In this document: piece after piece, positions 51,972-61,236 of the stretch
How positions within the stretch are numbered: the stretch's first letter is position 1
How the letters are laid out: every line of letters begins with the position of its first letter
Assembly (NCBI GenBank): GCA_903873945.1
Contig: CAIQQM010000191.1
Span: forward strand, 1 to 61,236
Direction of reading: 5' to 3'
DNA from: an uncultured Verrucomicrobiota bacterium
GTDB lineage: Bacteria; Verrucomicrobiota; Verrucomicrobiia; Limisphaerales; UBA8199
Length of the DNA: 61,236 nucleotides
The notes under the pieces: model-generated
What the model was told of the DNA's origin: nothing
Database searches by the model: none
The model's input: only the letters and a program-made list of their open reading frames with translations
Position numbers and translations under genes: made by a program

Positions 51972-52649
51972 ATGAAAACGAAAGCGAACCAAGCGATCCG
52001 GGAACTCCGGAAAACCATCGGGCAAACGCAGGGCGAATTTGCGGCCATGATTGGCGCCTCGAAGGATGCCGTCGCGAGCTGGGAAACCGGGCGGAACAAG
52101 TTGTCGGACCAATTTGCGCGGCGCATGGCGTTCGCCACGGGGGTGGACGAGGATGAGCTGCTGCGCGGGCGGGGCCCGCTGACCTGCTACGTGCCATACA
52201 CCGGCCACGAGCCTTTCACCGCGGCGGCGTTCGAGCGCTACCGGGGCACCTACTGGGGGCGTTCCGATGATAAATCGGCACAGCGGCACTACAAGAATTG
52301 CGCAGACGCGCTGTGGCTTCTGTTCATGGCGGCGGCGCGTCCGGGCGGCGGCAAAATCCGGCATCGGCTGCCCGGGGTGCTCGACTCGTTCATCCAATGG
52401 TGCCAGCGGACGCGGGAGGATTTTCTACTGGAGCCACAGATCGAGGATCAGCTTCGGCAACGGAAATCCAAGCTGGTGTTGAGCCGCAGCTACGGGCAAT
52501 GGCGGGCGATGCAGAAGGAGGATCCGAAGGTGATCCGGCTGATGGGTTTCAAGGACGATCCGCGGAAAGACGACGAGGAGGAGCTGTGTCTGGAAGCAGA
52601 CACCATCCCCATATGGAGGCCGGGATATCCGATGCGTGGGCCGAAGTGA
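51972..52649 (+). CDS. XRE/Cro-CI-type HTH transcriptional regulator
   Basis: IRELRKTIGQTQGEFAAMIGASKDAVASWETGR; divergent from the terminase genes. Confidence 0.88.
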   Translation: MKTKANQAIRELRKTIGQTQGEFAAMIGASKDAVASWETGRNKLSDQFARRMAFATGVDEDELLRGRGPLTCYVPYTGHEPFTAAAFERYRGTYWGRSDDKSAQRHYKNCADALWLLFMAAARPGGGKIRHRLPGVLDSFIQWCQRTREDFLLEPQIEDQLRQRKSKLVLSRSYGQWRAMQKEDPKVIRLMGFKDDPRKDDEEELCLEADTIPIWRPGYPMRGPK

Positions 52650-52710
52650 AGCGTGGCGGGCGGGCGGCAATCAGTGAACAGTGACCGATGACCGGGCAAT
52701 GAAACCGAAA

Positions 52711-52880
52711 GCCACGGATTAAACACGGATTTTTAGCCACAGATTTCACAGAGTCGAAGTTCGACTTCCCATCACAGACGGGGAAAAGGAACTTGGGATT
52801 CAACATGGATTGAAGTCCGGTTTCTGGCCGGGCGGCAGGGATGCCGCCGGCTACGGCAGGCCGGAAGCCCGCCGCTACTC
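52711..52880. repeat. Intergenic patch of short REP-like repeats
   Basis: CCACGGATT/CACGGATT/CCACAGATT/CACAGA units and a GGCGGCA-ggga-TGCCGCC hairpin; GCCACAGATTTCACAGA recurs at 55284-55300. Confidence 0.55.
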
Positions 52881-53043
52881 ATTTGCGTCGACTGACGGGC
52901 GGCTACGAGGGGTTAAGCGGAAGCTCGCGCCGACGTCAGAGGTGATGGGGCGTGGCTGGGGCGGAGGGCTTGAAAAAGGAGTGAGTGTCCGATTCCAATT
53001 TTCGCTCGACAAGTCCACCTGGTTTTGTCATATTCGCTCCGTA

Positions 53044-53460
53044 GTGAAGGCAGGCATCCCCGAATTGGTTCAGCCAGTCAACCAGGCTTCTCTGGAATGG
53101 AGCCTGAGCTTCGAAGCCACTACGGGCATCCTCCACGTCCACACCTCGGGCACTATTACCCGTGACTCCTTGCCCGGCTTGTTCGGTGACACCGTCGAAG
53201 GTTTGCGCCGTTACCATGCCCACCGCCTGCTCGTCGATAACCGGGATGCCAGCCTTGCACTGAGCCAGGAAGACATCCTCAGGGGGGCCCAGATGGCCCG
53301 CTCCGTCACGCCCGACCCCACCACCAAGCTTGCTATTGTGTTCTCCCACCTCGGTCCCATGGAACAGCTCATTCGTCAAAGTCTTTTCCTGTTCAACCTT
53401 CGGGTCGCAATCTTTGACCGCCTGGAGATAGCCATATCCTGGCTGACCGACAAGACCTAG
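53044..53460 (+). CDS. STAS/SpoIIAA-like hypothetical protein (start uncertain)
   Basis: GILHVHTSGTI..RLLVDNR..KLAIVF..IFDRLEIAISWL pattern; the upstream part of the tracked ORF is repeat-derived. Confidence 0.6.
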   Translation: MKAGIPELVQPVNQASLEWSLSFEATTGILHVHTSGTITRDSLPGLFGDTVEGLRRYHAHRLLVDNRDASLALSQEDILRGAQMARSVTPDPTTKLAIVFSHLGPMEQLIRQSLFLFNLRVAIFDRLEIAISWLTDKT

Positions 53461-53563: not shown

Positions 53564-53678
53564 CTGTTCAGGTTCAACGAAGGATTGACCCGGGACAGCA
53601 TTTATGATGGTTTCAGTTGTCAGTACGAACGGCGATGGCAACAGTAGTTTTGTCCTTTTAACACAACGGAACAATCAC

Positions 53679-54965
53679 ATGAAAACTCAAGCCCGCGGCT
53701 CAGAAATACGGATGCTGTTGTCAGTGATAATTCTCTTTGCCGGCGCCTTGCTGGCGCAGGCGGCGGACAAGAAAGGCGGGCCGAGCCCGGCTTCATGCGT
53801 GGCTTGCCATGAGAAACAGACGCCGGGGATCGTGACGGACTGGCGGATCAGCCGCCACAGCCAGGTGGACGTGGGCTGTGCGGATTGCCACGGCGACGGG
53901 CATCAGTCCACCAACGATGTTGCCCGGGTGAAAATTCCCACGCCGGACACCTGCGCGGAATGTCACGAGCAACAAGTGACGCAGTTCAAGAACGGCAAGC
54001 ACGCGCTGGCCTGGGCGGCGATGAAGGCGATGCCGACGATTCACTGGCAGCCGATGGCGATGATTGACGGCATGAAAGGGTGCGGCGGCTGCCACAAGAT
54101 CGGCTTGAAGTCGGAGCAGGAGATCAAGGACTTGAAAAAGAGCGGCGGGGGTTTCGGCCTGGCCTCATGCGACGCCTGCCACACGCGGCACACGTTCTCG
54201 GTAAAGGAGGCGCGGCAACCGCAGGCCTGCGAGACCTGCCACATGGGCTTTGACCATCCGCAGTGGGAAATGTATTCCGGCTCGAAACACGGCGTGCGCA
54301 GCAACCTCAAACAGATGGGCCTAATCGCCACGAATGCCGTCGCGCCAACGTGCCAGGCCTGCCACATGAACCAAGGCCATCACGACGTGGACACGCCGTG
54401 GGGATTCCTGGCTGTGCGCCTACCGTTGCCGGAAGACAAGCAATGGGCGGCGGACCGCGTAACGATTTTACAGGCGCTCGGCGTGCTGGATCCGGAGGGC
54501 AAACCCACCGCGCGCCTCGACGTGGTGAAGGCGGCCAGGGTCGCCAAGCTCACCCAGGAGGACTGGCAGAAGGAACGCGACGCGATGCTGTCCACCTGCA
54601 ATGAGTGTCACTCGGGCAATTTCGCCAAGGAGCAACTCGCTCAGGGCGACAACATGATCAAGGAATCCGATCATCTGATGGCGGAGGCGATCCGCGTGGT
54701 GGCGGGACTTTACCAAGACGGTTCGCTGAAGAAACCGGCGAACTACGTCAGCGCGTTTCCGGATTTGCTGACGTTTCACGACGCGCCGACGGTGATCGAA
54801 CAAAAACTGTTCGTCATGTATCTCGAACACCGGATGCGGGCATTCCAAGGCACGTTCCACGCGAATCCCGATTATGCGTTGTGGTACGGCTGGAGTGAGA
54901 TGCAGCGTGACCTGACGGAAATTAAGGCGCTCGCCGCGGAGCTAAAAAACCCAGCAAAGAAATAG
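53679..54965 (+). CDS. Octaheme c-type cytochrome, hydroxylamine oxidoreductase (HAO) family
   Basis: Signal peptide; 8 CxxCH (CVACH, CADCH, CAECH, CGGCH, CDACH, CETCH, CQACH, CNECH); HTRHTFS, HMGFDHPQWEMY..SKHG. Confidence 0.88.
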   Translation: MKTQARGSEIRMLLSVIILFAGALLAQAADKKGGPSPASCVACHEKQTPGIVTDWRISRHSQVDVGCADCHGDGHQSTNDVARVKIPTPDTCAECHEQQVTQFKNGKHALAWAAMKAMPTIHWQPMAMIDGMKGCGGCHKIGLKSEQEIKDLKKSGGGFGLASCDACHTRHTFSVKEARQPQACETCHMGFDHPQWEMYSGSKHGVRSNLKQMGLIATNAVAPTCQACHMNQGHHDVDTPWGFLAVRLPLPEDKQWAADRVTILQALGVLDPEGKPTARLDVVKAARVAKLTQEDWQKERDAMLSTCNECHSGNFAKEQLAQGDNMIKESDHLMAEAIRVVAGLYQDGSLKKPANYVSAFPDLLTFHDAPTVIEQKLFVMYLEHRMRAFQGTFHANPDYALWYGWSEMQRDLTEIKALAAELKNPAKK

Positions 54966-55062
54966 GGCGGCTAACAGGTCCGCCTTCCGTGTGGTTTTGC
55001 GGCGGCGGCGTGGTCCGTGGCTTTGTGGATGCGCGGGACAAGGGCGGCGCTTCAAGAGGCGG
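54963..55062 (+). repeat. ~100-bp G-rich direct repeat, copy 2
   Basis: Begins at the cytochrome stop codon; aligns with 53458-53563. Confidence 0.85.
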
Positions 55063-55470
55063 GTTTCTGATCGTTGTTTCCGGAGTGTGGTTTTTTGGCG
55101 CCTGATTTGGCGCGGTACTTAGGGACTGAGTCGTGGAGGGCAACCGCGGCAAGCTGGGTTGCAGTGGGAGTTTGGGTGTGGAGCTGGATTTGAAGGTCGG
55201 CTTCGCATAAGCATGGAATCTTCCATTTCGGATTGCGGATTGAAGCCAGAAGGTCTGGCCACAGATTGGGAAAAGGAATTTTGGCCACAGATTTCACAGA
55301 TTTCCGGGGCAGGAATTTAACGTAAAGACGGTCCGGGCCGGACCCGCCAAGAGACACGAAGGCTCTGCAAAACCAGAATAAAAGGGGACCCCATTAACGG
55401 TCAATCAATGAACCGGGGCTTGCGGGGGAATGGGTTACAAGCTGGCAAGTTGGCGTTTTCAATTTTTCGC

Positions 55471-55498
55471 TTGTCAATTGTTGCTGATATCCTAGTCT
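55471..55498 (+). promoter_or_regulatory. Possible sigma70 promoter of the GNAT-thiolase operon
   Basis: TTGTCA-N16-TAGTCT; GGAGAGGAG RBS before ATG 55587. Confidence 0.3.
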
Positions 55499-55586
55499 CG
55501 CCGACTCATGAAAAATGAAATGAAGAGAAAATTCGAGCGCAGGGCCGGCGCAGGTTCAAACCAGGCCAACCCGGAGAGGAGAATAT

Positions 55587-56336
55587 ATGTCAATTGATGT
55601 AGAGAAAATTCTAAGGCCGACCGATAACCCCTTCCCCCCATTCCAACCCAAGTACATGATGTTGGCGGGCGGCGAGGAAATGGTCATCCGCCAGGTAAGC
55701 CGGGAGGACATTCCGGACATCCTTAAGCACGTCGAACCTTTGCTGCATGTCGAGCGGGATTACTACGATGTGGTTGCAGCCCGCCTTTACAGCGAACTGC
55801 TGGCTTATTACCGGTATCGCGTCCAGGACGAATACGTGCTGGTGGCGCAGATCAACGGCGAACTGGTGGCGGTCGTCAACGGCCGGTCGCTGAGCAAGGA
55901 TGTCGGCATGTCATACCACACGGTCGCACTGCGGCGCGGGTTGCGCGTCGGGGCGCACGCCTTTGCCTCGAAGATGGAGTACCACTTTGACATCCTCGGC
56001 CAGAAAGAAGTGCTCATTGTGGCCGAATCACCCATTGGATTCCGCCGCTGGATGATTGAGTATGAACTGGAAAAACGGTTTCACATGGCGCACGAGCTGG
56101 GTGGCGTGCCCTCATGGTCCTTGACGAAGGAGCTGTTCAACAAGGCGCGGGCGACCCTCGTGGTCGGCCGCCGGCCGGTGCCGAAACATCTGCTGGAGAA
56201 GGCGAAAGCCGCCATTCTGCCGCCGACCGATCCGCCGAAGGCGCCCGCCGATCTGCTGGCCGCCACACGTTCGATGTATGACTCAACCGGCACTGCGCTC
56301 ATGTCGCAACGCTGGCAACAGGAAGGGAATGCTTAA
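55587..56336 (+). CDS. Hypothetical protein, probable GNAT acyltransferase fold
   Basis: MVIRQVSREDIPDI, VLVAQINGELVAV, RRGLRVGAHAF (motif-A-like); strong RBS. Confidence 0.6.
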   Translation: MSIDVEKILRPTDNPFPPFQPKYMMLAGGEEMVIRQVSREDIPDILKHVEPLLHVERDYYDVVAARLYSELLAYYRYRVQDEYVLVAQINGELVAVVNGRSLSKDVGMSYHTVALRRGLRVGAHAFASKMEYHFDILGQKEVLIVAESPIGFRRWMIEYELEKRFHMAHELGGVPSWSLTKELFNKARATLVVGRRPVPKHLLEKAKAAILPPTDPPKAPADLLAATRSMYDSTGTALMSQRWQQEGNA

Positions 56337-56339
56337 GCT

Positions 56340-57515
56340 ATGCGCGAAGTATATGCTGTTGGTGTTGGAATCACGAGCTTCACCAGGCTCGAATACCCGC
56401 TGAGCGAAATCGCCGCCTACCCGGCGATGATGGCGCTCAAGGATGCCGGACTCTCGAAGGTGGACCACGTTTATGTCGCCAATATGGCTGCGGCAAGACT
56501 CAACCACCAAAGCGGCCTGGCCAGCGCGGTTGTGGACACTCTTAGTTTGACTCCTGCCGGCGCAGAAGTGATCGAGAATGGCCCGGCCTCGGGCGCCTCG
56601 GCGCTCAAACAGGGCTACATGGCTATCGCCTCCGGGCTGCATGACGTCGTCCTCGTAACGGGGGCCGAGCGGCTACGCGAGGTCAACAACCTCGAGGCAA
56701 CGGACGCTGTTGCCACGCTCAGCCATCCGCTGGCCGAGTATATCTATGGCGTGACCCTGCCGTCCCTGGCCGCCATGTTCACCCGCCTTTACATGCAGAA
56801 GTACGGCGTCACCGAGCGGCATCTGGCCATGGTTGCGGTAAAGAACCATGACAATGCGCTGCTCAACTTCTACGCGCACCTGCATGAAAAGGTCACGCTC
56901 GAAGGCATCCTCGATTCACCCGAGGCGATGACAAACAATCCGTATGTCGCCGAGCCATTGCGGTTCTTCGACTGCTGCCCCGTTTCGGACGGGGGCGCTT
57001 GCGTCATCCTGGCCTCCGCCGAGGTCGCCAAGAAACTCAAGAAGCCGCTGGTCCGGCTGGCCGGTGTTGGCCAGGCCACGGATTCACACTGCGTGCACGA
57101 GCGCGCCGAACCGACGGACCTGCTCGCGGTGCGCGGCGCCGCGGCCCAGGCATTCAAGATGGCGGGCGTAACTCCGAGCGACGTGAATGTGGCCGAGCTT
57201 CACGACGCGTTTACAATTCTGGAAATCGCCGAGAGTGAAGAGGTTGGCTTCTTCAAGAAGGGCCAAGGGCACCTTGCGCTTGAGCGCGGCGAGACGCGCA
57301 TCGGCGGCAAGCTACCCATCAACACTTCCGGCGGTCTGAAGGCAAAAGGTCACCCCGTCGGGGCGACCGGTGTCGGGCAGGCCCACGAAATCATCCTGCA
57401 GCTCCGCGGCGAAGCCGAGAAGCGGCAGGTCAAGGATGCCAAAATCGGCTTTACATGCAACTTCGGCGGCTTCGGCAACAACGTTGTCTGCCTGGTCTTT
57501 AAGAGGGAGAACTAA
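56340..57515 (+). CDS. SCP2/archaeal-type thiolase-superfamily protein lacking the nucleophilic Cys
   Basis: ENGPASG in place of E-x-ACASG, VAVKNH, DCCPVSDG, ELHDAF, INTSGGLKAKGHPVGATG. Confidence 0.9.
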   Translation: MREVYAVGVGITSFTRLEYPLSEIAAYPAMMALKDAGLSKVDHVYVANMAAARLNHQSGLASAVVDTLSLTPAGAEVIENGPASGASALKQGYMAIASGLHDVVLVTGAERLREVNNLEATDAVATLSHPLAEYIYGVTLPSLAAMFTRLYMQKYGVTERHLAMVAVKNHDNALLNFYAHLHEKVTLEGILDSPEAMTNNPYVAEPLRFFDCCPVSDGGACVILASAEVAKKLKKPLVRLAGVGQATDSHCVHERAEPTDLLAVRGAAAQAFKMAGVTPSDVNVAELHDAFTILEIAESEEVGFFKKGQGHLALERGETRIGGKLPINTSGGLKAKGHPVGATGVGQAHEIILQLRGEAEKRQVKDAKIGFTCNFGGFGNNVVCLVFKREN

Positions 57516-57516
57516 T

Positions 57517-57864
57517 ATGGCCCTAGAAATCTATGCTTATAAGTGCAGAAAATGCGGACAGCTCCATTACCCGTACCGCATGGTTTGCAAGAAATGCGGC
57601 AAGAACGATGTATTCGAATTCGACACCGTTCCGCTGCCCAAGAACGGTAAACTGCTGACTTTTACGACGGTCCACAACCTGCCACCGGACTTCAACGTAG
57701 CCAAGCTCACGCTCGGCATCGTTGAATTGGAGAACGGGATGCGCGTCACCGGCCAACTGAAGGCCCCGAGCCCGAAGATGGGCATGCGCGTCACCGGGAA
57801 AGTGGAGATCGTGCGGGAAGCGGAGTACAGCAAGAACTTCGGGTTCGTGTTCTATCCGGGATGA
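57517..57864 (+). CDS. DUF35 Zn-ribbon/OB-fold protein
   Basis: CRKCGQLHYPYRMVCKKCG, GKLLTFTTV, GIVELENG, GMRV; starts 1 bp after the thiolase stop. Confidence 0.92.
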   Translation: MALEIYAYKCRKCGQLHYPYRMVCKKCGKNDVFEFDTVPLPKNGKLLTFTTVHNLPPDFNVAKLTLGIVELENGMRVTGQLKAPSPKMGMRVTGKVEIVREAEYSKNFGFVFYPG

Positions 57865-58832
57865 TGCTCGTCAGCATCGGCGACCAGGTTGAGGCAGGCA
57901 CATACTGCTTTCATTCCTGGTTCGCCCGGGCTGTAAATTTCGAGCGCAACGGCCGCCTGGTCTCGGTGGTTGATGAAGACATCGGCCCCGGTCCGCTGAG
58001 CATTGTCCTTCGCGGACGAAAGCTGAGAACGGGCCAGGCTGTGGCGCATCCGCTGGAAATCGGCAATCACACGGTGGTCTTTGAAGGCCACCGTTTTTCT
58101 TTTGAGCGCCGCCATCGTTATCATTCCGCGCTGGAGTGGGAAGCGGGCGGCCTCAAACCGATTAACTGCCGGTCCATTCCCAAGCCGTCCCCCCGATCTT
58201 CCGCCCGCCAGAAGGGGAGACGGGAGAACCTTAACCGTTTCCAGCAGAACCTGCCGGTTTTTGAGGAATTATTGAAGAGCACCGCCCCTCCCGGAAGCCT
58301 CGCTTTCCTTTTGGACAAACGGCGCCTAGTCAACTTCCGGGCAGGTTTCGAGCGCGCTTTCGCCAGGCAGGCAATGGGGGGAGTGCGCTGCATCTTTCAT
58401 GGCAGTCTTCTGAAGGGCATCGGCTCTTTGAAAGGCTGTGGCGTGGGTTTGACCCCCAGCGGCGATGATTTCATCGCCGGATTGCTTATCGGCCTCAACC
58501 TTCTGCAAGAGATGCACGGCCGGGATTACCAGCCCATTGCGGATGCAATCTTCAACGCCGCCCAAGGGAACAACATCTTTTCAAACACCTTTCTCGACCT
58601 GGCGCGCCAGGGCCGGCTCTTCGGCCGCATGAAAGACCTGATTTTGTCGCTAAGGGGCGGCAGCAGGAACGCCGTGGAAAAATCGGCAAAGAAGCTGTTT
58701 GCCATCGGTGAAAGTTCCGGAGCCGACCTGGGCACAGGATTCTGGATGACCGTCCAGGATGGAGTCGGAACGGCGGAGCGATGGAAAGAGCAATCCTTAA
58801 CTATTCCGACCCCGGATTCGCGTTTTACGTAA
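57861..58832 (+). CDS. DUF2877 protein (YlbF/AllH-like)
   Basis: GCGVGLTPSGDDFIAG and IGESSGADLGTG motifs; ATGA overlap with DUF35 gene. Confidence 0.88.
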   Translation: MMLVSIGDQVEAGTYCFHSWFARAVNFERNGRLVSVVDEDIGPGPLSIVLRGRKLRTGQAVAHPLEIGNHTVVFEGHRFSFERRHRYHSALEWEAGGLKPINCRSIPKPSPRSSARQKGRRENLNRFQQNLPVFEELLKSTAPPGSLAFLLDKRRLVNFRAGFERAFARQAMGGVRCIFHGSLLKGIGSLKGCGVGLTPSGDDFIAGLLIGLNLLQEMHGRDYQPIADAIFNAAQGNNIFSNTFLDLARQGRLFGRMKDLILSLRGGSRNAVEKSAKKLFAIGESSGADLGTGFWMTVQDGVGTAERWKEQSLTIPTPDSRFT

Positions 58833-58948
58833 AGAGGTTTACGTTGTTAAAAACAGCCGGAATCTTTCGTTTTTTGCCAATTCGCCTTTACAATTGGGAC
58901 AGGCCCGGGGCATGGTAAACAGGTTTCTGTTGCATAAAACTCTTATAC

Positions 58949-60505
58949 GTGATGACTGTCGCCGGCCAAATTAAAAAGGGAGCTTATTTCGATTCCGTTA
59001 CTTTGATGCGTGTTGGCAAAGAGCTTGCGGGGCTTCCGGGTGTAGCTGACGCCGCAGTGGTCATGGGAACGCAATCCAACAAGGCGATCCTCAGCGCCAG
59101 CGGCTTGCTGATTTCAAAGTTCGATGAGGCGGGAGACACCGACCTGTTGGTCGCCGCAAAAGCCAGCTCTCCGGCAGCAGCGGAAAAGGCCCTGGCCGCG
59201 GTGGATGAACTGCTCAAGAAAGCCACAAAAAAGACCGCCACTGGAGCGCAGGCCAACCCGATGAGTTTGAGCGGGGCGATGAAGGTGCTACCGGGCTCAA
59301 ACCTGGCGTTGATTTCAGTAGCCGGCCGCTACGCGGGTGACCTAGCGATGCAGGCGCTTGAAAACAACCTGCATGTCATGCTGTTTTCGGACAACGTGCC
59401 GCTGGAGCAGGAAATCAAGCTCAAGAAATTCGCGCGCAACCGGGGACTGCTGGTGATGGGGCCGGATTGCGGCACGGCGATCATCAATGGCGTGCCGCTC
59501 GCCTTTGCGAACGTGGTCAAACGCGGGAACATCGGCATCGTGGCCGCAGCGGGCACGGGCCTGCAGGAAGTCAGCTGCCTCATCGCCAACGCCGGCGGCG
59601 GCGTTTCGCAAGCCATCGGCACCGGCGGGCGCGATGTGAAGGAGGAAGTGGGCGGCATCATGTTCATCGAGGGGCTCAAAGCCCTAGCCAAAGATGCGCA
59701 AACGCGAGTGATCCTGCTGGTTTCGAAACCCCCGCACCCGGCGGTGCTTCGCCGGATTGAAACTGTGGCGAAAGGAATCCGAAAACCCATTGTCACCCTG
59801 TTTATTGGCGCCAAAGCAGCGGCCGGCGGGCCCGCCACTCTCGAGGAAGCCGCGCTGCAAGCGGTAGCGCTGGCGCAGGGCCGGCAGCCGGGCACAGTGG
59901 CCCAGCAGCTTGCCGCCAGAGACGAGGAGTTCCGGAAGCTGGCCCGGCGCGAAGCCGCGAAGCGACAGAAGGGCCGGAAATACCTGCGGGGCCTCTTCAG
60001 CGGAGGCACTTTTTGCGCCGAAGCGCAGATTTTGTTGAAGGACCTGCTTGCGAATGTGCATTCGAATGCGCCGGTCAAGGGCGCGAAACAGCTCCGCAAC
60101 TCTTTGCTCAGCGAAAAGAACACCCTGATCGATCTGGGCGAGGATGAATTCACGGTAGGGCGGCCGCATCCCATGATTGACTATTCGCTCAGGAACAGCC
60201 GGATCCTCAAAGAGGCGGCGGATGCGGAAACGGCGGTCATCCTGCTCGACATCGTCCTCGGTTATGGCTCGAACCTGGACCCGGTGGGAGAGATTTCGGG
60301 AATGATCCGCCAGGCGGCGCGCAAAGTTTCAGTGGTTTGTTCAATTACGGGCACCGATGAGGATCCACAGAACCGCAGCAAGGTGGAAGCCGCGCTGCGG
60401 AAAGCAGGAGCCCTGGTGATGCCCTCGAACGCGGCAGCCTGCATTTTCGCAGGCAGGATTATTCAGTGCCTGGGCTACGGCGCGAAAAACAAAAGCTCGA
60501 AATGA
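58949..60505 (+). CDS. fdrA: FdrA (AllF)-like acyl-CoA synthetase alpha-subunit homologue
   Basis: YFDSVTLM, MLFSDNV, VMGPDCGT, GTGLQE, AIGTGGRD, GLFSGGTFCAE, DEFTVGRPHPMID. Confidence 0.92.
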   Translation: MMTVAGQIKKGAYFDSVTLMRVGKELAGLPGVADAAVVMGTQSNKAILSASGLLISKFDEAGDTDLLVAAKASSPAAAEKALAAVDELLKKATKKTATGAQANPMSLSGAMKVLPGSNLALISVAGRYAGDLAMQALENNLHVMLFSDNVPLEQEIKLKKFARNRGLLVMGPDCGTAIINGVPLAFANVVKRGNIGIVAAAGTGLQEVSCLIANAGGGVSQAIGTGGRDVKEEVGGIMFIEGLKALAKDAQTRVILLVSKPPHPAVLRRIETVAKGIRKPIVTLFIGAKAAAGGPATLEEAALQAVALAQGRQPGTVAQQLAARDEEFRKLARREAAKRQKGRKYLRGLFSGGTFCAEAQILLKDLLANVHSNAPVKGAKQLRNSLLSEKNTLIDLGEDEFTVGRPHPMIDYSLRNSRILKEAADAETAVILLDIVLGYGSNLDPVGEISGMIRQAARKVSVVCSITGTDEDPQNRSKVEAALRKAGALVMPSNAAACIFAGRIIQCLGYGAKNKSSK

Positions 60506-61236
60506 AGAAGTCCATAACCCAATTGTTCGGCAGCGAGTTAAAAGTGATTAATTTCGGGCTGTCGGCCTTCAAGCAGGCGTTGGACGAGGTCCGCGTGCCC
60601 GCCGTGCAAGTGGATTGGAAACCGCCGGTTGGCGTGGATCCGAAACTTGTGAAGCGAGTGGAGGCTGCCGGGCCGGCGATCGAGAAGGCAAACGCCCAGG
60701 TCATGAAGATCATCCTGGGCGGCATGCCGCAGCTTATCGGCCTCGAGCGAGCGATCGACGTTATTCCCGGAATGAAACGGAACCTGCTCCTGCATGCGGG
60801 GCCGCCGATCACCTGGGACAGAATGTGCGGCCCCATGCGCGGCGCGATTATTGGCGCCCTCCTTTATGAGCGCCAGGCGGAATCGGCCGAAGACGCGGAG
60901 CGGCTGGCGGCATCCGGCGAGATTGAGTATTCGCCGTGCCACGAACATGCGTCGGTCGGGCCGATGGCCGGAGTGGTATCGCCGTCGATGCCGGTTTTCG
61001 TTTTAAAGAACGAGGCGTTTGGCAACCAGGCATATTGCACGATGAACGAAGGCCTGGGCAAAGTATTGCGCTACGGCGCCTATGGCGAAGACGTGATCCA
61101 AAGGCTTCGCTGGATGGAGAACACGCTTTACCCGACATTAAAAAAAGCCCTGGCGAAGCTGGGTAAAATCAATCTTAAAAACATCATCGCCCAGGCGCTG
61201 CACATGGGCGACGAAGTCCATAACCGGAACCGCGCC
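60502..61236 (+). CDS. DUF1116 protein (YlbE/AllG-like), runs off window end
   Basis: Manual translation from ATG 60502: MKKSITQLFGSELKVINFGL..VQVDWKPP..LLHAGPPITW..PCHEHASVGPMAG..NEGLGKVLRYGA..LHMGDEVHNRN. Confidence 0.9.
   Translation, partial: MKKSITQLFGSELKVINFGLSAFKQALDEVRVPAVQVDWKPPVGVDPKLVKRVEAAGPAIEKANAQVMKIILGGMPQLIGLERAIDVIPGMKRNLLLHAGPPITWDRMCGPMRGAIIGALLYERQAESAEDAERLAASGEIEYSPCHEHASVGPMAGVVSPSMPVFVLKNEAFGNQAYCTMNEGLGKVLRYGAYGEDVIQRLRWMENTLYPTLKKALAKLGKINLKNIIAQALHMGDEVHNRNRA

Follow-up and report, generated by a model that had tools for sequence, protein, structure and literature searches.

A conserved ten-gene operon of uncultured bacteria and its proposed role in pyrimidine breakdown via barbiturate

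What could a bacterium gain from an operon that joins a thiolase fold lacking its nucleophilic cysteine to homologs of the Escherichia coli AllFGH proteins? This question is raised by six co-oriented and tightly packed genes at positions 55587-61236 of a 61,236-nucleotide stretch of DNA (hereafter the window, which is the whole of contig CAIQQM010000191.1, assembly GCA_903873945.1) from an uncultured Verrucomicrobiota bacterium. An earlier note, made from the letters of this stretch, had described them as a GNAT gene, a Cys-less thiolase gene and a DUF35 gene joined to a DUF2877-FdrA-DUF1116 module. We found that the six genes are the front part of a ten-gene operon that continues on another contig, and we propose, with a probability of roughly 0.55 for the whole, that this operon serves a barbiturate route of pyrimidine breakdown in which the GNAT-thiolase-DUF35 trio handles the remaining three-carbon (C3) fragment, each step of this route being one that we infer.

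Analysis of the open reading frames (ORFs) bore out the six-gene set of the earlier note, including its packing and family matches, and the same order recurs in dozens of genomes. The features of this region are as follows (aa, amino acids; bp, base pairs).

55587-56336, plus strand: GNAT-fold gene, 249 aa, with the ribosome-binding site GGAGAGGAG ahead of it
56340-57515, plus strand: thiolase-like gene, 391 aa, after a 3-bp gap from the GNAT-fold gene
57517-57864, plus strand: DUF35 gene, 115 aa, after a 1-bp gap from the thiolase-like gene
57861-58832, plus strand: AllH/DUF2877 gene, 323 aa, in ATGA overlap with the DUF35 stop
58833-58948, no strand: spacer of 116 bp between AllH and FdrA
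58949 (GTG) or 58952 (ATG) to 60505, plus strand: FdrA/AllF gene, 517-518 aa, after a gap of 116 or 119 bp
From 60502 past the window end at 61236, plus strand: AllG/DUF1116 gene, in ATGA overlap, with the first 245 of its 471 residues in the window

The last 141 bases of the window are identical (100%) to one end of contig C106, where the minus strand carries the rest of AllG and four further co-oriented genes: a cyclase-family hydrolase, then the FAD, 2Fe-2S and molybdenum (Mo) subunits of a hydroxylase of the xanthine-dehydrogenase family (domains Cyclase PF04199 at 114.9 bits, FAD_binding_5, Fer2_2, MoCoBD_1 and MoCoBD_2). This contig join was confirmed by the same ten-gene order in the close relatives L004, L008 and L015, whose cassette proteins are 72-96% identical to those of the window, except for AllH at 44-57%. 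The extent given in the earlier note was right for its six genes, but the two components that define the pathway, the cyclase-family hydrolase and the Mo hydroxylase, escaped its view. A 620-bp non-coding stretch lies ahead of the GNAT-fold gene. In the 116-bp spacer, consensus scans detected no terminator-like or promoter-like site and Rfam gave no match, nor was there any Rfam match at E <= 1 within 54800-61236; terminator-like sites overall were not above shuffled sequences (13 found against a mean of 8.6, standard deviation 3.0). Since AllH and FdrA abut or overlap in close relatives, the spacer is particular to this genome.

The two halves of the operon belong together far beyond this genome. 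When one genome per species was searched with the GNAT protein, 107 relatives came up, with 80 loci kept, and the genes of these loci were called with a program trained on codon usage (calling by longest ORF missed many true genes where GC was high). A thiolase-like gene was found in 79 of the 80 loci and a DUF35 gene adjoining it in 74, together with FdrA and/or AllG in 53, Mo-hydroxylase subunits in 51, AllH in 37 (using the window-type query) and the cyclase in 25; every partner match lay on the strand of the GNAT gene and none on the opposite strand. Most of the 27 loci without FdrA or AllG stop at a contig edge, and about ten have long flanks on both sides. Where the trio stood alone, the five genomes that were checked all had AllG elsewhere, with FdrA beside it (5/5 each), and near this distant AllG the cyclase was found in three of the five and the hydroxylase in one. 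The thiolase/DUF35 half and the AllH-FdrA-AllG half are therefore truly associated across phyla, and the adjacency noticed earlier in a single stretch holds in 53 of the 80 loci. We found no paper describing the cassette in the literature searched, and the earlier note likewise knew of no description of this combination.

The cassette occurs in uncultured Verrucomicrobiota, Acidobacteriota, Lentisphaerota, Planctomycetota, Elusimicrobiota, Riflebacteria, Ignavibacteriota and Actinomycetota. In the phylum of the window it is patchy, with a GNAT-family match in 12 of 401 genomes and 6 of 185 genera of an even sample that counts this genome. Two main orders were seen. The window order (GNAT, thiolase, DUF35, AllH, FdrA, AllG, cyclase, FAD, FeS, Mo) has FdrA downstream of the GNAT gene, as in 29 loci, and FdrA lies upstream of it in 21 loci, which follow the Actinomycetota order (AtzD/TrzD-family gene, AllH, FdrA, AllG, FAD, FeS, Mo, GNAT, thiolase, DUF35, permease), often with a PucR-type regulator upstream. 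Sequencing runs that contain at least half of the sampled words of the stretch are labeled lake water, freshwater or freshwater sediment, and runs labeled peat contain about a quarter to a third of these words; no RNA run is listed for the stretch.

Based on this gene content, we propose the following route. The Mo hydroxylase would oxidize uracil or thymine to barbiturate or 5-methylbarbiturate with oxygen from water, and the cyclase-family hydrolase would open the ring to ureidomalonate, doing the job of the AtzD-type barbiturase of the Actinomycetota form. The AllH-AllF-AllG homolog would then cleave ureidomalonate, as E. coli AllFGH does oxalurate, to carbamoyl phosphate and malonamate, and a stand-alone carbamate kinase encoded elsewhere in the genome would convert carbamoyl phosphate into ATP, ammonia and CO2. 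Finally, the GNAT, the Cys-to-Pro thiolase fold and DUF35 would act as one unit on the C3 fragment: the GNAT would load the malonyl group on coenzyme A (CoA), and the thiolase fold would decarboxylate it to acetyl-CoA (propionyl-CoA from thymine). That the operon degrades uracil or thymine via barbiturate, without oxygen, appears likely to us, and this assignment of the substrate pathway, which draws on comparative context, is fairly firm. We consider the AllFGH-like step on ureidomalonate probable, if somewhat less secure, and the role of the trio as a CoA-loading and decarboxylating unit is a tentative proposal. What the data show directly is the gene content and its conservation, the folds and the missing nucleophile of the thiolase; all that concerns substrates is inferred.

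Related loci give several pointers to the substrate. The AtzD/TrzD-family gene (PF09663, 479 bits), present in 16 loci of the Actinomycetota order, has the barbiturase 5hwe_A as its top solved relative (534.6 bits), with cyanuric acid hydrolases at 312 bits or less, and by this comparison it is a true barbiturase ortholog. The Actinomycetota order has no cyclase-family gene, so the cyclase-type and AtzD-type amidohydrolases look like alternative ring-openers. The permease found in 17 loci of the same order matched uracil permease best (348.6 bits, equivalog cut-off 477), ahead of RutG (282 bits) and the xanthine permease pbuX (223 bits). A cytosine-deaminase-like gene lies within the cassette of locus L180.

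Barbiturase also occurs with AllHFG where the trio is absent. In an even sample of Actinomycetota, 17 of 401 genomes carried a barbiturase-like gene of at least 519 bits (counting the query genome and the unpublished genome G278; four more were weaker), and the GNAT was found in one of the 401, the query genome itself. Among ten barbiturase loci from this sample that we compared, eight had an NCS2 permease nearby, six had AllH, FdrA or AllG (one of them at the locus edge only), three had a distant Mo hydroxylase, two had none of the queried genes and none had the trio. Two of these clusters (L116:7618-19900 and L120:1-12300), compared gene by gene, have the order PucR, barbiturase, NCS2 permease, carbamate kinase, AllH, FdrA, AllG and distant FAD-FeS-Mo subunits, their carbamate kinases scoring 297 and 303 bits on PRK12352 (cut-off 266). 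The classical barbiturate pathway may be encoded by a trio-less cluster of this kind. The arrangement of both clusters is that of E. coli allFGHK (PMC11326118) attached to a barbiturase, and this is the main reason why we propose that the AllFGH-like enzyme splits ureidomalonate. Carbamate kinase would have no reason to accompany AllHFG unless carbamoyl phosphate were the product. The window genome has one carbamate kinase (389 bits) on contig C34, whose neighbors are unrelated and include no arginine-deiminase genes among those annotated; a carbamate kinase match of at least 346 bits was present in four of five other cassette genomes, three of them above the 358-bit cut-off, against 2 of 14 controls above the cut-off.

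If the first half of the route is a pyrimidine pathway of this kind, what might the trio add? The thiolase-like protein carries Thiolase_C_1 (PF22691, 149.1 bits) and Thiolase_N (PF00108, 73.3 bits), scores 409.4 bits on NCBIfam PRK06064, just under the cut-off of 420, and aligns end to end with its top PDB match, the archaeal thiolase 7yvy_A (271 bits). It reads ENGPASG where 7yvy_A reads EAACASG, so that Pro82 aligns with the acyl-accepting Cys, and the label Cys-less given by the earlier note proved exact. Proline stands at this position in 77 of 77 cassette homologs, so the loss of the nucleophile is a family trait and not decay. Also invariant in all 77 are the whole ENGPASG motif, His288 (ELHDAF), His338 (GHP) and Cys213; we take the HDxF and GHP motifs to provide the oxyanion-hole and catalytic histidines. 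The protein thus lacks the nucleophilic Cys that defines a thiolase and keeps the domains and the histidines. As a separate observation, the PDB entry 4yzo_A, a "putative acyl-CoA acyltransferase" that matches at 238.8 bits, has TSGSG at the position of the thiolase Cys, so a structure of a Cys-less relative already exists.

A Cys-less thiolase fold that keeps both histidines is suited to stabilizing an acyl-CoA enolate, as Cys-less decarboxylases of the ketosynthase type do. We propose that the thiolase-like protein is an enolate-stabilizing enzyme, most likely a decarboxylase of malonyl- or methylmalonyl-CoA. Its DUF35 neighbor (OB_ChsH2_C, PF01796, 36.8 bits; zf-ChsH2, PF12172, 28.1 bits) combines a zinc ribbon with an OB fold and belongs to the kind of protein that usually accompanies SCP2-type thiolase folds; its zinc-ribbon cysteines C10, C13, C24 and C27 are invariant in 20 of 20 sequences.

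The third member of the trio was harder to name. It matched no Pfam family at E <= 0.01 and no PDB sequence better than E 0.16. Its AlphaFold model (mean predicted local distance difference test, pLDDT, 87.6; predicted template-modeling score 0.83) gave 220 PDB matches at E <= 0.001 in Foldseek, in which every named match among those listed was a GNAT acetyltransferase, and VIA-align placed 1yre_A first (Z 12.9, root-mean-square deviation 2.9 A over 159 residues), with 185 chains at Z >= 8 and GNATs in all of the best 50 matches. The GNAT label of the earlier note thus stands at the level of the predicted fold but finds no counterpart in sequence matches. The family, which we call the GNAT1 clade, is unnamed, compact and very conserved: among 2544 homologs, the best 120 share 73-91% identity across phyla and none of these is named beyond "hypothetical", and of 1.84 billion cluster representatives only 174 match it at E <= 0.001. 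D61, R66, E70, R78, R100, S109, H111, T112 and K129 are kept in at least 90% of rows, the distant clade included. A GNAT pyrophosphate-binding loop has the form Q/R-x-x-G-x-G/A; the stretch at this position reads RRGLRVGA, with R117, G118, R120, G122 and A123 invariant in 25 of 25 sequences, a spacing that does not match the motif exactly. Malonyl-CoA decarboxylase and the CurA GNAT were not among the top rows of the Foldseek or VIA-align searches, although the protein may nonetheless be related to them. No match to the GNAT-fold protein was found in a plasmid collection. Only two longer homologs, P0273 and P0274, were found; comparison with the window's thiolase-like protein showed that P0274 (536 aa) is not a GNAT-thiolase fusion but a garbled read-through into the thiolase gene.

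We propose the GNAT-fold protein as the malonyl-transferring partner of the thiolase-like protein, and we assign it the CoA loading because it is the only other component whose fold normally binds acyl-CoA. It might instead take the malonyl group directly from ureidomalonate, or be the decarboxylase itself. Complex prediction of the GNAT against thiolase plus DUF35 gave a score of 0.57 (runs 0.57, 0.57 and 0.29; best of three controls 0.00), with runs agreeing in at least 65% of contacts and a pLDDT of at least 76 for the GNAT partner. When the method was calibrated, 58 of 80 solved complexes scored high enough to pass, as did 2 of 110 mismatched pairs, and scores of 0.60 or less comprised only seven of the 80 solved complexes together with both passing mismatches. 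The prediction lends weak support to an association of the GNAT with thiolase plus DUF35.

What the trio may do is also suggested by the company kept by a sister clade of the GNAT. A metagenome scan seeded with distant homologs (about 35% identical to the window protein) returned 489 relatives, with 80 loci kept, and we analyzed 60 sister-clade loci of at least 5 kb. Beside the sister GNAT, the cyclase was found in 36 of these 60, FdrA and/or AllG in 26, hydroxylase subunits in 24, AllH in 20, carbamate kinase in five and barbiturase in one. A thiolase gene appeared in a single locus, L157, which has both GNATs. In 12 loci, the neighbor was a set of Na+-decarboxylase genes: methylmalonyl-CoA decarboxylase alpha, mmdA (885 bits on TIGR01117, against a cut-off of 998.8), a subunit of the OadG family, a carrier of biotin and the beta subunit that translocates Na+ (521 bits on TIGR01109, cut-off 190.6). 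Eight of the 60 loci had none of the genes counted here. The fullest variant (L184, L197 and L200) reads permease, PucR, AllH, four decarboxylase genes, GNAT, FdrA, AllG, cyclase, carbamate kinase, FAD, FeS and Mo, with a uracil-type permease at 397.6 bits and a carbamate kinase at 435.6 bits (cut-off 358). A quick maximum-likelihood tree separated the two GNAT clades with 100% support on each side (Shimodaira-Hasegawa-like approximate likelihood-ratio test, SH-aLRT); this tree took in GNAT ORFs of 225-300 aa from the first set and of 200-300 aa from the second, and a quick search only was used for it. A thiolase gene lies next door in 59 of the 61 rows of the window's clade and in none of the 59 rows of the sister clade. 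The window genome itself yielded no sister GNAT and no Mmd-type decarboxylase in a query search. Since Mmd adjoins the sister GNAT in variant cassettes, we propose that thiolase/DUF35 would do the net reaction of Mmd.

Several sister-clade loci show further neighbors. The metagenome contigs L131, L133, L136 and L140 have two sister-clade GNAT genes back to back (divergent) at the head of the cassette; the Mo subunit of L133 and L140 is separated from this pair by a DUF5714 protein and a lipoate/biotin-protein-ligase-like gene. In L158, L171 and L174, the gene directly upstream of the sister GNAT encodes a carbon-nitrogen hydrolase (an amidase of the nitrilase superfamily, PF00795), followed by a DUF900 alpha/beta hydrolase in L158 and L171; this PF00795 neighbor hints that an amide such as malonamate may be the sister GNAT's business. 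In L123 and L124, the sister GNAT stands behind a Bmp/PnrA-type nucleoside ATP-binding cassette transporter and a zinc alcohol dehydrogenase, and in L124 the Na+-decarboxylase genes come after it.

Taken to its full extent, this reasoning would make the AllFGH family a general N-acylurea phosphorylase, through which, together with the trio, bacteria independent of O2 would gain ATP and acetyl-CoA from the pyrimidine ring. The GNAT would then work "backwards" and transfer a malonyl group from nitrogen onto CoA. With proline for its nucleophile, the thiolase fold would be a soluble, cofactor-free malonyl-CoA decarboxylase that pulls this uphill step inside a DUF35-scaffolded complex. In this complete form, we regard the idea as doubtful.

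The trio could also have another function within the same pathway. It may be a retro-aldol or retro-Claisen lyase like Ltp2 and Sal, or the thiolase fold may be a silent scaffold with the GNAT alone catalytic, for example in decarboxylating ureidomalonate or malonamate. GNAT-fold decarboxylases do exist (malonyl-CoA decarboxylase and the CurA loading domain), and the sister GNAT manages in the same cassette without a thiolase in all 59 of its rows, so that the GNAT may carry essential chemistry. For a lyase speak the match to the lipid-transfer protein 6ok1_A (112 bits) and the fact that the steroid aldolases Ltp2 and Sal, which are characterized Cys-less thiolase folds, are bound to DUF35 and stabilize an acyl-CoA enolate (PMC12329534). 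However, the proposed route has no hydroxyacyl-CoA intermediate that would need an aldolase, and the top matches of the thiolase-like protein are true thiolases of the archaeal type rather than aldolases, while a silent scaffold fits poorly with 122 invariant positions out of 391, both oxyanion-hole histidines among them. Both versions seem fairly unlikely to us.

A different question is whether the ring is a pyrimidine at all, since the operon's own hydroxylase and hydrolase do not name it. The Mo subunit has 4-hydroxybenzoyl-CoA reductase alpha as its top PDB match (323.6 bits), followed by CoxL (247 bits) and xanthine dehydrogenases (227 bits), and the equivalog scores of the hydroxylase on NCBIfam are all far below their cut-offs (492 against 780 for xanthine dehydrogenase, XDH), so that by its scores the subunit belongs to no characterized subfamily. 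The cyclase family includes isatin hydrolase and kynurenine formamidase, and the window has no permease or regulator that would name the substrate. The operon could accordingly degrade another N-heterocycle or cyclic imide, such as a hydroxylated pyridine or pyrimidine analog, a hydantoin-like ring or a triazine, and deliver another N-acylurea to the AllFGH-like enzyme. We find this improbable, given the barbiturase ortholog at the corresponding place of the Actinomycetota cassette, the uracil-type permeases in two cassette variants, the cytosine-deaminase-like gene in one cassette and the methylmalonyl/malonyl-CoA-type decarboxylase of the sister-clade loci, which fits a C3 malonyl product. 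In addition, contig C259:1974-2486 of the same genome encodes 171 residues with 99.4% identity to the C-terminal end of the Mo subunit on C106, which is probably assembly redundancy or a strain variant.

The AllH, FdrA and AllG proteins themselves raise a third possibility. All three are, by their model scores, members of the AllH, AllF and AllG families: AllH scores 77.7 bits on PF11392 (cut-off 25; residues 192-297), FdrA scores 481.5 bits on NCBIfam PRK06091 (cut-off 433) and 291 bits against the E. coli FdrA structure 3dmy_A over residues 99-511, and AllG matches PF06545 at 167.5 bits in its window part (positions 1-105) and at 220.2 bits in its C106 part (positions 59-215). AllH is the fastest-evolving member of the cassette: relatives that match the window's thiolase-like protein at 90-96% identity match its AllH at just 44-57%. 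It is 323 aa long here, whereas several close relatives have an AllH of 272-294 aa (longest-ORF calls reach 382 aa), and the Pfam model covers only its C-terminal 106 residues. Given these memberships, with XdhA, XdhB and XdhC among the top NCBIfam matches of the hydroxylase and PucR-type regulators in variants, the three could form a genuine oxamate carbamoyltransferase in a pathway of oxalurate derived from purine or allantoin, with a xanthine dehydrogenase as the Mo enzyme. But the annotated genes of the window, C106 and related loci include no uricase, allantoinase, allantoate amidohydrolase or ureidoglycolate dehydrogenase family, the XDH equivalog scores fall well short, and the barbiturase of the Actinomycetota version acts on a pyrimidine-type ring. 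Neither a carbamate kinase nor an allantoin gene was found in the operon or in the annotated 6 kb upstream, as the earlier note had already seen for the allantoin genes, and the window's AllHFG has neither allK in its operon nor allECD adjacent, which is the context of the allantoin enzyme. We therefore judge this reading very improbable.

The least credible alternative is that FdrA, which is related to succinyl-CoA synthetase alpha and carries CoA_binding (25.6 bits) and CoA-ligase (115.1 bits) domains, is an acyl-CoA synthetase serving the thiolase-like enzyme or the GNAT, for instance by converting ureidomalonate into malonyl-CoA and urea: the classical pathway is reported to release urea (PMC3758960) and the methylmalonyl-CoA-type decarboxylase of variant cassettes must receive its CoA ester from some enzyme, but purified E. 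coli AllFGH is a carbamoyltransferase (PMC11326118; oxamate + carbamoyl phosphate <-> oxalurate + phosphate), and carbamate kinase accompanies AllHFG in barbiturase clusters and variant cassettes. The suggestion of the earlier note that an FdrA complex makes an acyl-CoA for the thiolase is left unsupported by the same activity on oxalurate, oxamate and carbamoyl phosphate, and also by the clusters of barbiturase, carbamate kinase and AllH-FdrA-AllG that exist without any thiolase.

A number of observations nevertheless weigh against the barbiturate route with its C3-handling trio. The permease of the trio-less barbiturase clusters resembles xanthine permease (261 bits) more than uracil permease (102 bits). 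No barbiturase was found in the window genome by query search, and the cyclase-family hydrolase that takes its place is only weakly like known members (kynurenine formamidase 44 bits, isatin hydrolase 24 bits), so that its assignment to barbiturate hydrolysis comes by position alone. The carbamate kinase is not adjacent to the operon in the window. For the trio, the complex score of 0.57 falls in a band where, by the tool's own account, wrong predictions outnumber right ones except for guesses that were likely from the start. The Na+-decarboxylase beta subunit is present in 2 of 10 other trio genomes, and this family is uncommon anyway (2 of 14 controls), which weakens the point of exclusivity. 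Moreover, 48 of the 60 sister-clade loci have neither thiolase nor Na+ decarboxylase in the stretch covered and L157 has both GNATs, so the argument that thiolase and decarboxylase are interchangeable partners is suggestive only. Thiolysis of a primary amide such as malonamate by CoA is uphill by roughly 17-22 kJ/mol, and little energy would therefore be left for a sodium pump. Finally, the Rhodococcus pathway is reported to give urea and malonate via a "ureidomalonase", and not carbamoyl phosphate (PMC3758960).

The genes just upstream of the operon appear to have no part in it. A multiheme c-type cytochrome (53604-54965, plus strand, 453 aa; Multi-haem_cyto 106 bits), whose top NCBIfam match is hydrazine dehydrogenase at 108 bits, far under the cut-off of 900, is unrelated to the gene cluster. 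Before it, 51972-53460 (plus strand) encodes an XRE-type helix-turn-helix protein (225 aa) and then a 216-aa protein with a weak SpoIIAA-like match (17 bits, below the cut-off); no link of these genes to the operon was seen in relatives, where the upstream genes differ.

Biochemical knowledge of pyrimidine breakdown through barbiturate goes back to the 1950s. To our knowledge, only barbiturase has a gene, those for uracil/thymine dehydrogenase and ureidomalonase being unassigned, and we found no assignment for either enzyme in the literature searched. The cassette offers concrete gene candidates for uracil/thymine dehydrogenase and for the fate of ureidomalonate, which is proposed here as a second substrate for the recently discovered AllFGH family. 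It also holds two possible new activities, a thioester-forming GNAT and a decarboxylating cysteine-less thiolase, neither of which has been described for these folds in this combination, and it may be an important, overlooked route by which nucleobase nitrogen and carbon are recycled under scarce oxygen.

How does this operon compare with known systems? With E. coli AllFGH and AllK (Kim and Kim 2024, PMC11326118), it shares three homologous subunits (FdrA/AllF, DUF1116/AllG and DUF2877/AllH) and, as we propose, the same chemistry, in which phosphorolysis of an N-acylurea gives carbamoyl phosphate for a coupled carbamate kinase. It differs in gene order (H-F-G in the window, F-G-H-K in E. coli), in having no allantoin genes and an unlinked carbamate kinase, in its proposed substrate ureidomalonate, which is one carbon longer than oxalurate, and in sharing its operon with the trio, a Mo hydroxylase and a hydrolase proposed to open the ring. 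With the oxidative pyrimidine route of Rhodococcus and other actinomycetes (uracil/thymine dehydrogenase, barbiturase 5HWE, ureidomalonase), the first two reactions would be the same; the window has a cyclase-family hydrolase where Rhodococcus uses barbiturase, and its third step would be phosphorolytic and yield ATP, whereas that of Rhodococcus is hydrolytic and gives urea and malonate.

For the trio, one close known system is the archaeal complex of acetoacetyl-CoA thiolase, HMG-CoA synthase and DUF35 (6ESQ, 6ET9), to whose thiolase type the window protein is nearest (7yvy_A as above; 6esq_A 223.7 bits) and which likewise combines a separate DUF35 with a third protein. The archaeal complex channels an unfavorable step into a favorable one, and the trio may share this logic; it differs in having Pro for Cys, a GNAT fold instead of HMG-CoA synthase and a catabolic context. 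Ltp2 and Sal, to which the window protein is only distantly similar, act as retro-aldolases on the CoA esters of steroids, use Tyr/Tyr or Tyr/Cys catalytic pairs and have a DUF35 fused to a hydratase (PMC12329534). The Na+-translocating methylmalonyl-CoA decarboxylase MmdABCD, which adjoins the sister GNAT in 12 of 60 loci, is unrelated in sequence to thiolase/DUF35, and it is biotin-dependent, membrane-bound and ion-pumping. Set against these systems, the cassette is a candidate variant of a known pathway type, with candidate new enzyme activities.

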